This document shows, in pieces, positions 1 to 3,000 of a stretch of 29,210 nt of DNA (position 1 is its first letter; each line of letters starts with the position of its first letter). Made by a program: the position numbers. Origin of the DNA: a virus (Duplodnaviria; Heunggongvirae; Uroviricota; Caudoviricetes); the IMG/VR virus record IMGVR_UViG_2874968258_000002; one strand, 5' to 3'.

Positions 1-3000
1 TTAACTGATCGGCATTACACCACCGGGACGCGGATTCATATCTTCCAGGTCGCGGCAGTCATTGGAAGAGTAAATTCCCCAGTTGATCCCGGTGGCGTAG
101 GCTTCAAAACGGGACTTCATATCCCCGCGCAGTAACGCCCCGGCGTTAAATTTGGCGTAATAAACGCCCTGCTTACTTTTTCGTACCAGTCCGGTGTTGA
201 TCCGCTGTTCGATGCGGGTCAGATACGGCACCAGTGAATAGTTGATAAATCCCAGCCCCAGCTCTTCGATATTGTTGAAGGTGGCGCGATCGGTGTTCTG
301 CACCATGTGCAACGGCACCCGGAACAGACGACAGATTTCTTCCAGCTGAAACTTGCGGGTTTCCAGGAACTGACTGTCCTCGGCGTTCAGCGCCATCGAC
401 TTCCAGTCCAGCCCCATTTCCAGAATCATCGGGCGGTGAGCATTGCCAAGCCCCGTGTGACACTCCTCAAAATCTTTCTTCAGACGCTCGTAAGCATCCG
501 GCGTGAGCTTTTGTTCCGTACGCAACACACCGGATGTCACCGCACCATTACTAAACAACCTGGCACCGTGCTCCTCGGTTGCCGCTGCCAGTGAAATGGC
601 CTCACGCGCATACGCAATGGGATTCAGCCCGACAAGTCCATCCAGCGTCAGGGTGCGCACATGCCAGATTTCATTCTGGGTCAACACATCCACGGAACCA
701 TCCGGAAACGTCACCTGATAAACCGGCTGCCACTGGCTGTTCAGCTTCGGTTCCACACAGCCCGGATCTATCGGAAGAAGCTCCACCACTTCTCCCAGTG
801 CCTTTACCTTGTAGGCGTAAAAATTCCCCCGTAGACACAGGCAGACAATAACCAGCTCCCAGAATTCCTGCGGTGTCATGTAGCCATTAGGTTTTGCCGA
901 AACCAACTTATGCAGTCGTTCATCCACCGCCCGTGTTTTCAGGGTACCGCTGATTTTGTAGAGACTGCAGGGCAGCATACCAACAGACTCTGCCAGCACC
1001 CTGACGCAAGAATAGACCGCCGTCAGGCGCATGGCCCGCTGGCTACTGATCCGCTTTCCGGTATAGGTGTCGTATGACAGCCCGATAGCATCAGCAGTTC
1101 TGCTGGCGTGGTCACCGGCACATCGCTTTTTCGTTGAAATAATCCCGAAAAGAACACTATTTACCTCCGCCGACAGACTGCCGTGTACGGTCGAGATATC
1201 GCGCCACCAGCCACGACCAGAACAGGCACAGCGCCCCGGCAACAACAAAACCCGCCGGGGGATAAATCAGCCAGGCACCATACGCCAGCAAAAGCGCACC
1301 CAGCACGCCCACCAGAGGCGCGAGAATCAGCATGATCATAATTACCTCAGTTAAAGCGAGCGGATCCCGTAGGACTCAATGTGGTCAGACAGCGTGTCTT
1401 CTTTCTCGTACAGCATGGCTCTGCCAACCGCCATAATCAGCGCAACTGCACCATCGATTTTGTTTTCCGCCTGCTCTTTGACGGGTTTCACCACATCATC
1501 GTTACCCGGCATGTTTTTGCCGACCACGTTGCCGATACACCAGGTCATGATGGGATTGCCGTCATGATGAAAACGTCCCGATTCAATCGCTGCTTCCAGC
1601 TCTTTCATCGGATCGGACATATTGGTGAAGTTCTGGACGATAGTGACGGGATTCAGGTCTTCATCAGCAAGGTCATGTGACAACCCGGTCGCCCCGAAGG
1701 GGTCGATGGGTGACTCACTGACCGGGCTGATTTTGTTCGCCGCTTTGGCCTCCTCGAGGATGTAGCGATAATCCACCTCCGCACCATCGGTAACGGTCAG
1801 AACGCCCATTTCCACCCATTTCTGAAAGCGTTCGGCTGTCCGTCGATCTTCATTTTTCTCGACGCTGTACACCGTGTCATACGGTACCCAGAAACGCGGG
1901 GCCACACTGTAGTAATGCGTTTTACCGTCAATCTCGCGGGTATAAAGTCGCGCCATGCTGTTCATATCCAGCTTACGCGCCAGGTCAAAGGCCAGAATGC
2001 ACGGCTGCCCCTCGAACTGCTCAAGGGTCAGTGATTTATCCTCGCAGCTCTGCCAGCTCACCAAGTTGAAATACGCCGAACGCGCCGACACCCAGATATT
2101 GAGGTGTTTTGTTTTAAAGACGTTTGCCAGACGGGCGTTATTTTTCGCACGCTGCTGCTGACTTAACAAAAATTCGCGATAAACCGACACGCCAATATTT
2201 GGATTGGCTTTTTCCAGCACCTGCGGGCCGGTCCAGTCGTCACCTTCATCAACGGTATAGATGATCCCGAACAGTTCATCGTTAGGCACCGAGCCGTTGA
2301 GCATCTCGATGACTTCCCGCCGCTTGTCGTAGCACGGCCCCTCAATGTTGTACCCGGCGGTGGTGATGGCCCACATCAGTGGCTGACGTCGCGCCCCCAT
2401 CCCGGTAAGCATTGTGGTATAAAGCGCATCGGTGGCATGCTCGTGATATTCATCAACCACGGCACAGTGGGGTGATGAACCATCACCTGGGTTGCCGATC
2501 AGCGGTTCAAACCGCGCGCCATCCTCCGGACGGTTCATGTTTGAGGCGTTAACCTCAATCCCGAACGCTTCCGTCAGCATGGGTGTGCGTTTACACATCA
2601 GTCGCGCCGGGCGAAAGACTTCCCACGCCTGTTTCTCTGTCGTGGCACCGGAATACACTTCCGCGCCAAACTCGTTATCACAGGCAAAACAATACAGGGC
2701 AACACCGGCAGAGATTGCTGATTTGCCGTTCTTACGGGGGATTTCGGTGTACACCTCCCGGAAGCGGCGCAACCGGGTGCCTTTATTGACCCAGCCAAAC
2801 GCACAGCAGATCACAAATAGCTGCCACGGCTCCAGCGTGATGGGCATCCGTTTGAATGCCCACTCCCCCTTGGTGTGCGGCAACAGCTGAATAAATTTCG
2901 CGGCCCGTTCAGCCAGGTCCTTGTCGAAGCGGTAACGAAACGACTTACTTTTTTCCGCCATCAGGTCATCAAGATGGCGCTGGCAGGCCTGAATCACAAA

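Follow-up and report, generated by a model that had tools for sequence, protein, structure and literature searches.

The portal gene at the left end of the window (the whole stretch of 29,210 nt that was analysed) is very probably a dead pseudogene, which lies in the chromosome of Shigella sonnei, within a prophage remnant of the phiP27/ST64B/SfII type that is bounded by IS elements. It is disrupted in comparison to intact close homologs by a one-base deletion and by an IS4 element; an intact version of its allele is documented in a phage contig, and the same lesion is found in independent genomes, namely in 20 of 20 S. sonnei loci. Evidence that contradicts the pseudogene reading was not found in this analysis.

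Two reading frames and a missing base at the portal start

The features of the portal region are given below, and all coordinates in this region are readings of the minus strand.

1157-1339, minus strand: intact gene for a ymfR-like membrane protein of 60 aa, annotated as YmfR or membrane protein in relatives
1163-1168, minus strand: Shine-Dalgarno motif GGAGGT of the native portal start, read directly from the DNA, 5 nt upstream of the GTG
1155-1157, minus strand: GTG, the authentic portal start codon; the annotations of phiP27, E. coli A36 and SfII place the portal start at its equivalent
1095-1157, minus strand: portal codons 1-21 (VFFSGLFQRKSDVPVTTPAEL) in the native frame, which match the N-termini of intact portals
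1127-1131, minus strand: run of five A (A5 run)
1094-1096, minus strand: site of the 1-nt deletion in portal codon 22 (Ala), an alignment gap versus four relatives
1023-1094, minus strand: out-of-frame tail of the 44-codon ORF (LMLSGCHTTPIPESGSVASGPCA and a stop codon), without counterpart in intact portals
1030-1032, minus strand: ATG, internal Met43 of the portal and first canonical start codon in the body frame
18-1094, minus strand: portal body (ancestral residues 22-380), shifted into the -1 frame with respect to the start codon
1-17, minus strand: terminal inverted repeat of IS4 (TAATGCCGATCAGTTAA…), the only 17 nt of the element inside the window

An earlier, sequence-only reading of this DNA had noticed that the best start signal of the portal gene, a GGAGGT followed after 7 nt by a GTG at 1157, is in a different frame from the portal body. 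The signal and the GTG were found as described, but the spacer has a length of 5 nt (AAATA). The GTG (1157-1155) overlaps the TAG stop codon of the upstream ymfR-like gene (TAGTG). In an alignment of the window with phiP27, E. coli A36, ST64B and SfII the sequence from GGAGGT through GTG is invariant, and only three positions vary in the 46 columns of the start context through GTG; GGAGGT is also invariant in nine IMG/VR contigs. The annotated portal genes of phiP27 (a phage encoding Stx2e), E. coli A36 and SfII encode 413 aa from the GTG equivalent, and the annotated portal gene of ST64B encodes 414 aa and starts 3 nt upstream of it. Because of the conservation across the 46 columns and the annotated starts in relatives, the portal start signal at GTG 1157 is more than a chance occurrence.

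The frame of the GTG contains 44 codons (VFFSGLFQRKSDVPVTTPAELLMLSGCHTTPIPESGSVASGPCA) and ends at the TGA 1025-1023, 4 nt past the portal-frame ATG 1032-1030, in agreement with the sequence-only reading. Only the first 21 residues of the 44-aa product match anything, and the matches are portal N-termini. An exact look-up of the product in the gene-position collection, in which an ORF this short may go uncalled, gave no entry. Two further observations about the body frame were also correct. It contains no ATG, GTG or TTG from 1032 up to three TTGs at 1242-1248, which are situated inside the upstream 60-aa gene, and it is open as far as a TGA at 1269. In addition, it reads like a portal also upstream of 1032 (…DAIGLSYDTYTGKRISSQRA-M). 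The internal sequence QRAMRLTAV around Met43 is kept in all relatives.

A portal frameshifted by a single-base indel between GTG 1157 and ATG 1032 had been proposed, and the alignment to the intact relatives bears this out. The sole internal gap of the five-sequence alignment is located where the relatives have GAGCTGGCGGA(G/T)GC and the window has GAACT-GCTGATGC. The ancestral CTGGCT has become CTGCT, one G of the GG is missing, and the surviving G is position 1095. When IMG/VR was scanned for the repaired site flanked by the bases of the window itself, nine contigs were retrieved. One of them, the phage contig L028, carries GAACTGGCTGATGC, i.e. the window allele plus one G, and the remaining eight carry GAACTGGCGGATGC. 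The portal ORF has 413 codons in the five contigs whose stored DNA reaches the end of the gene. Because the exact intact allele was found in L028, the lesion is, as judged from the aligned alleles, the loss of one G from CTGGCT at window position 1095.

Additional comparisons were made with a 551-nt probe across the region, which matched 1,395 records from E. coli and 27 from phages. The matched segments carry annotations as terminase large subunit, YmfR, and phage portal protein, and among the matches listed every full-length subject exceeds the query by 1 nt. With the G inserted in silico, the repaired protein has 96% identity with the phiP27 portal across 385 residues and 90% identity with the portals of ST64B and SfII. 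The codon differences versus phiP27 comprise 63 synonymous and 10 non-synonymous changes, a synonymous excess that has the appearance of a gene under selection until recently.

The A5 run at about 1127-1131, which the sequence-only reading had regarded as a plausible indel site, was rejected, as CGAAAAAG is invariant in all aligned relatives. The nearest homopolymer is thus not necessarily the lesion, and alignment to intact relatives is a quick way to resolve a start signal that stands in the wrong frame.

The IS4 junction and the prophage remnant

The portal homology stops at window position 18, and the E. coli matches also begin at 18-20. The IS4 repeat replaces the last 33 portal codons and supplies …(V)MPIS together with the TAA stop codon at 1-3; the window portal therefore ends with …NPRPGG-VMPIS, whereas the phiP27 portal has 33 residues more. 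The IS4 cut is a second, independent lesion of the same gene, and this 3' truncation had been missed by the sequence-only reading. Full S. sonnei loci contain 20-nt inverted repeats, which are 90% complementary and span 1,430 bp end to end (locus L010), and which enclose a 442-aa IS4-family transposase (NF033592, 303.8 bits, cut-off 115). With its terminal repeats, a DDE transposase and a length of about 1.4 kb, the element has the features of IS4.

The far flank of IS4 is chromosomal; it consists of raiA-pheL-pheA-tyrA in part of the strains, and in other strains of a further IS with bamE-recN-nadK behind it. Within loci L005-L021, one form has a complete IS4 and then raiA-pheL-pheA-tyrA-aroF, and in the other form IS4 is cut at 374 codons by an IS3-family element, which is followed by bamE-recN-nadK. 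This strain-variable DNA beyond IS4 indicates IS-mediated rearrangement at the junction. Similarity to the 3' end of the phiP27 portal gene and the protease region was found neither in the IS4 flank nor in the rest of the window, and genes for a prohead protease, capsid or tail were not found downstream of the portal gene in the sampled S. sonnei loci. A target-site duplication as in a simple insertion was not found at the junction. Portal sequence does not resume on the right side of IS4, so that the distal phage DNA must have been lost or relocated when IS4 inserted or at some later time. The distal part of the prophage may have been removed in a deletion or rearrangement that involved IS4.

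The minus strand of positions 1-4047 represents a phage packaging operon, which ends in the portal gene at position 1. The features of the remnant outside of the portal region are:

4047-3697, minus strand: HNH endonuclease gene
3584-3081, minus strand: small terminase gene terS
1351-3084, minus strand: intact large terminase gene (577 aa; PF03354 and PF20441)
5947-6257, minus strand: four tRNA genes (Met-CAT, Arg-TCT, Thr-TGT, Gly-TCC) between the Q/ORF6N genes and the lysis cassette
about 9999-11319, minus strand: IS3-family element (301-aa rve ORF and 136-aa HTH_Tnp_1 ORF), with E. coli matches annotated as IS2

The surviving remnant of about 10 kb encodes a helicase, RusA, Q, ORF6N, the four tRNAs, holin, lysozyme, and Rz, and further holds the HNH, terS, terL, and ymfR genes and the damaged portal gene. 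Its other boundary is formed by the IS3-family element, which abuts the 5' end of the gene for a phage DnaB-like helicase (8492-10024). Lambdoid and Stx-type phages typically carry tRNA genes in such a place, downstream of Q. The ORFs of terL, terS, HNH, the lysis genes and Q are intact, and because of these intact ORFs the decay of the remnant appears to be recent or partial.

The body of the portal from ATG 1032 matches the model portal_HK97 (TIGR01537) with 258.9 bits (cut-off 112.05) over profile positions 7-343 of 343, and PF04860 is listed for the same 343-aa product. The gene itself deviates from an intact HK97-family portal gene by the deletion in codon 22 and the loss of 33 codons to IS4. 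The operon context is likewise incomplete, with terS, terL and ymfR upstream and with IS4 and then chromosomal genes downstream. The portals of phiP27 (NP_543090.1, gene L38), ST64B (Sb4) and SfII (SfII_04) belong, like the window gene, to the HK97 family (TIGR01537), and the three phages share with the window the order terS-terL-ymfR-like gene-portal and the start context GGAGGTAAATAGTG. However, their portal genes are uninterrupted and are followed by prohead protease and capsid genes, in contrast to the window gene, which is followed by IS4.

The closest precedent for portal decay in this phage family is the cryptic prophage e14 of E. coli K-12. It contains ymfR (b1150) followed by the portal fragment beeE (b1151), which starts at the overlap with the ymfR stop codon. 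Like the window remnant, e14 is decayed, and it carries the further pseudogenes aaaE and jayE. However, beeE is an N-terminal fragment of 157 aa that ends at the jayE deletion junction, whereas the window portal has a frameshift in its N-terminal and an IS4 in its C-terminal part. IS-driven pseudogenisation and rearrangement of Shigella genomes is a well-documented general phenomenon (e.g. PMC8072062). The window is in line with this in that IS4, an IS3-family element and IS1 bound or interrupt its elements. It differs in that the frameshift lesion is a point deletion and not an IS insertion.

The consequences for expression can be outlined as follows. The portal gene has retained its native ribosome-binding site and GTG 1157. 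Ribosomes that start there would translate 21 authentic residues, continue with 23 out-of-frame residues, and stop at TGA 1025-1023, so that a 44-aa junk peptide is the probable product. The other 359 portal codons are left in the -1 frame and lack their own start signal. A functional portal would then be absent, and the remnant would be unable to form particles. A low level of an N-truncated protein might conceivably still arise from ATG 1032.

Inheritance in Shigella sonnei and rival readings

All 20 fetched S. sonnei loci share with the window, base for base, a 153-nt segment that includes the deletion, and 16 of them, among these CP000038.1, agree with it over the full 1,400 nt. The 20 loci are from independent assemblies, both complete chromosomes and short-read drafts, ranging from the 2005 sequence of Ss046 to recent genomes. 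CP000038.1 is S. sonnei Ss046 (PMC6562246) and is the only locus tied to this species by name; the other assemblies were assigned by sequence identity and shared gene context. In the gene-position collection, 1,695 blocks record the 343-aa product (ATG 1032 to the stop codon at 1-3) and 4,305 blocks record the large terminase of the window. A 71-nt probe did not detect the deleted allele in 5,426 complete E. coli genomes; the full-length ones among the E. coli matches listed are 1 nt longer, with a best identity of 91.7%. Exact-pattern scans of the genome-contig collection found neither the deleted nor the intact allele. A possible reason is that GTDB counts Shigella as part of the species E. 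coli, which may leave no S. sonnei among the species representatives.

Since none of the 20 independent loci deviates from the 153-nt segment, the deletion is inherited across the sampled S. sonnei loci and is not a sequencing error, an alternative that the sequence-only reading had left standing. Single-base indels in short homopolymers such as the GG are typical for some sequencing platforms, yet an error of sequencing or assembly in a gene that is intact in reality would have to recur in every one of the independent assemblies, and the 343-aa product in the 1,695 blocks depends on the deletion; this explanation is therefore extremely improbable. The same low weight is given to the view that full-length portal is made by programmed -1 ribosomal frameshifting or by transcriptional slippage at the A5 run. 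The body lies indeed in the -1 frame relative to the start, and programmed frameshifts are known in structural operons of phages, e.g. for tail assembly chaperones. However, the GTG frame contains no X XXY YYZ heptamer from 1157 to 1023, and the only homopolymers in this stretch are T4 and A5, which are too short for efficient polymerase slippage. Slippage at A5 would also exchange the conserved SDVPVTTPAEL for unrelated residues, the portal is encoded in a single frame in all relatives, so that the two-frame arrangement is not conserved, and the gene is in addition truncated at its 3' end by IS4. The likeness to the programmed frameshifting of the lambda G/GT type is confined to a short upstream frame that overlaps a longer -1 frame; the slippery heptamer is missing, the split is not conserved in relatives, and the gene belongs to the wrong class.

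The native start of the portal might alternatively be ATG 1032, and the 44-codon ORF would then be a small conserved gene in its own right. In public S. sonnei genomes this ATG has been chosen by most automated gene calls, but in all relatives it is the internal Met43 of an ORF of 413 or 414 aa, and the 44-aa product is on record nowhere in the gene-position collection. Homologous portals starting at the equivalent of ATG 1032 had been named as the observation that would speak against a frameshift; they do not start there, and this possibility can hardly be upheld. Somewhat more weight, although it is still very unlikely, can be given to expression in two pieces, in which translation of the 44-aa peptide is followed by reinitiation at ATG 1032-1030 (ATGCGCCTGA) and yields a doubly truncated 343-aa portal that is retained by the host. 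The short ORF stops 4 nt past the ATG, a geometry suited to termination-reinitiation coupling; the 343-aa product spans positions 7-343 of the HK97 portal model, and the sequence is strictly conserved among S. sonnei genomes. That almost all of the conserved portal domain is still present (profile positions 7-343 of 343) counts against a fully dead gene. However, a Shine-Dalgarno motif is not present before ATG 1032 (GTAGCCAGCGGGCC), conservation in S. sonnei is expected anyway since the species is a recent clone, and prohead protease and capsid genes do not follow the portal gene as partners. An extension of this idea, slightly less probable again, is that the split gene is not fully dead, that ribosomes brought to TGA 1025-1023 by the strong native start resume at the ATG 7 nt upstream, and that the reinitiated 343-aa core is retained, e.g. 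because it might interfere with or supply infecting or satellite phages. It was considered because the window also contains another phage-like element, which has a gene for a protease/capsid fusion.

The portal pseudogene thus remains the preferred reading, and its correct annotation is a pseudogene with the native start at GTG 1157. Public calls for the same DNA differ: most give a 343-aa portal from ATG 1032, the Ss046 record (CP000038.1) has an ORF of 414 aa from a TTG inside ymfR, and CP104423.1 has no product there. Beyond the correction of these inconsistent public annotations, nothing new is gained. The biological importance is small, as the gene represents one more case of prophage decay in S. 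sonnei, by a point frameshift plus an IS insertion.

Other elements in the window

Directly beside the IS3-family element lies a 502-aa ORF with three AIDA autotransporter-stalk repeats (11303-12811, minus strand), which is probably an adhesin gene fragment. A further ORF of 492 aa with the domains DUF5507 and DUF5508 (13593-15071, minus strand) is YpjC-like in E. coli annotations.

The second mobile element comprises about 16600-27680 and ends beside a tRNA-Met gene (27602-27677). According to the annotations of E. coli matches, it encodes an integrase, a DNA primase, a tail assembly protein, and a fusion protein of a ClpP-like prohead protease and a major capsid protein. Over 11 kb it has the same sequence as E. 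coli FDAARGOS_1259 (100% identity), and it looks like a satellite or small prophage that has integrated at the tRNA gene.

Positions 27722-29210 contain two IS1 copies head to tail, with a start-to-start spacing of 776 nt, and the window ends within the second copy, in what we take to be the insA region. The pair could be a real tandem or a feature of the assembly.
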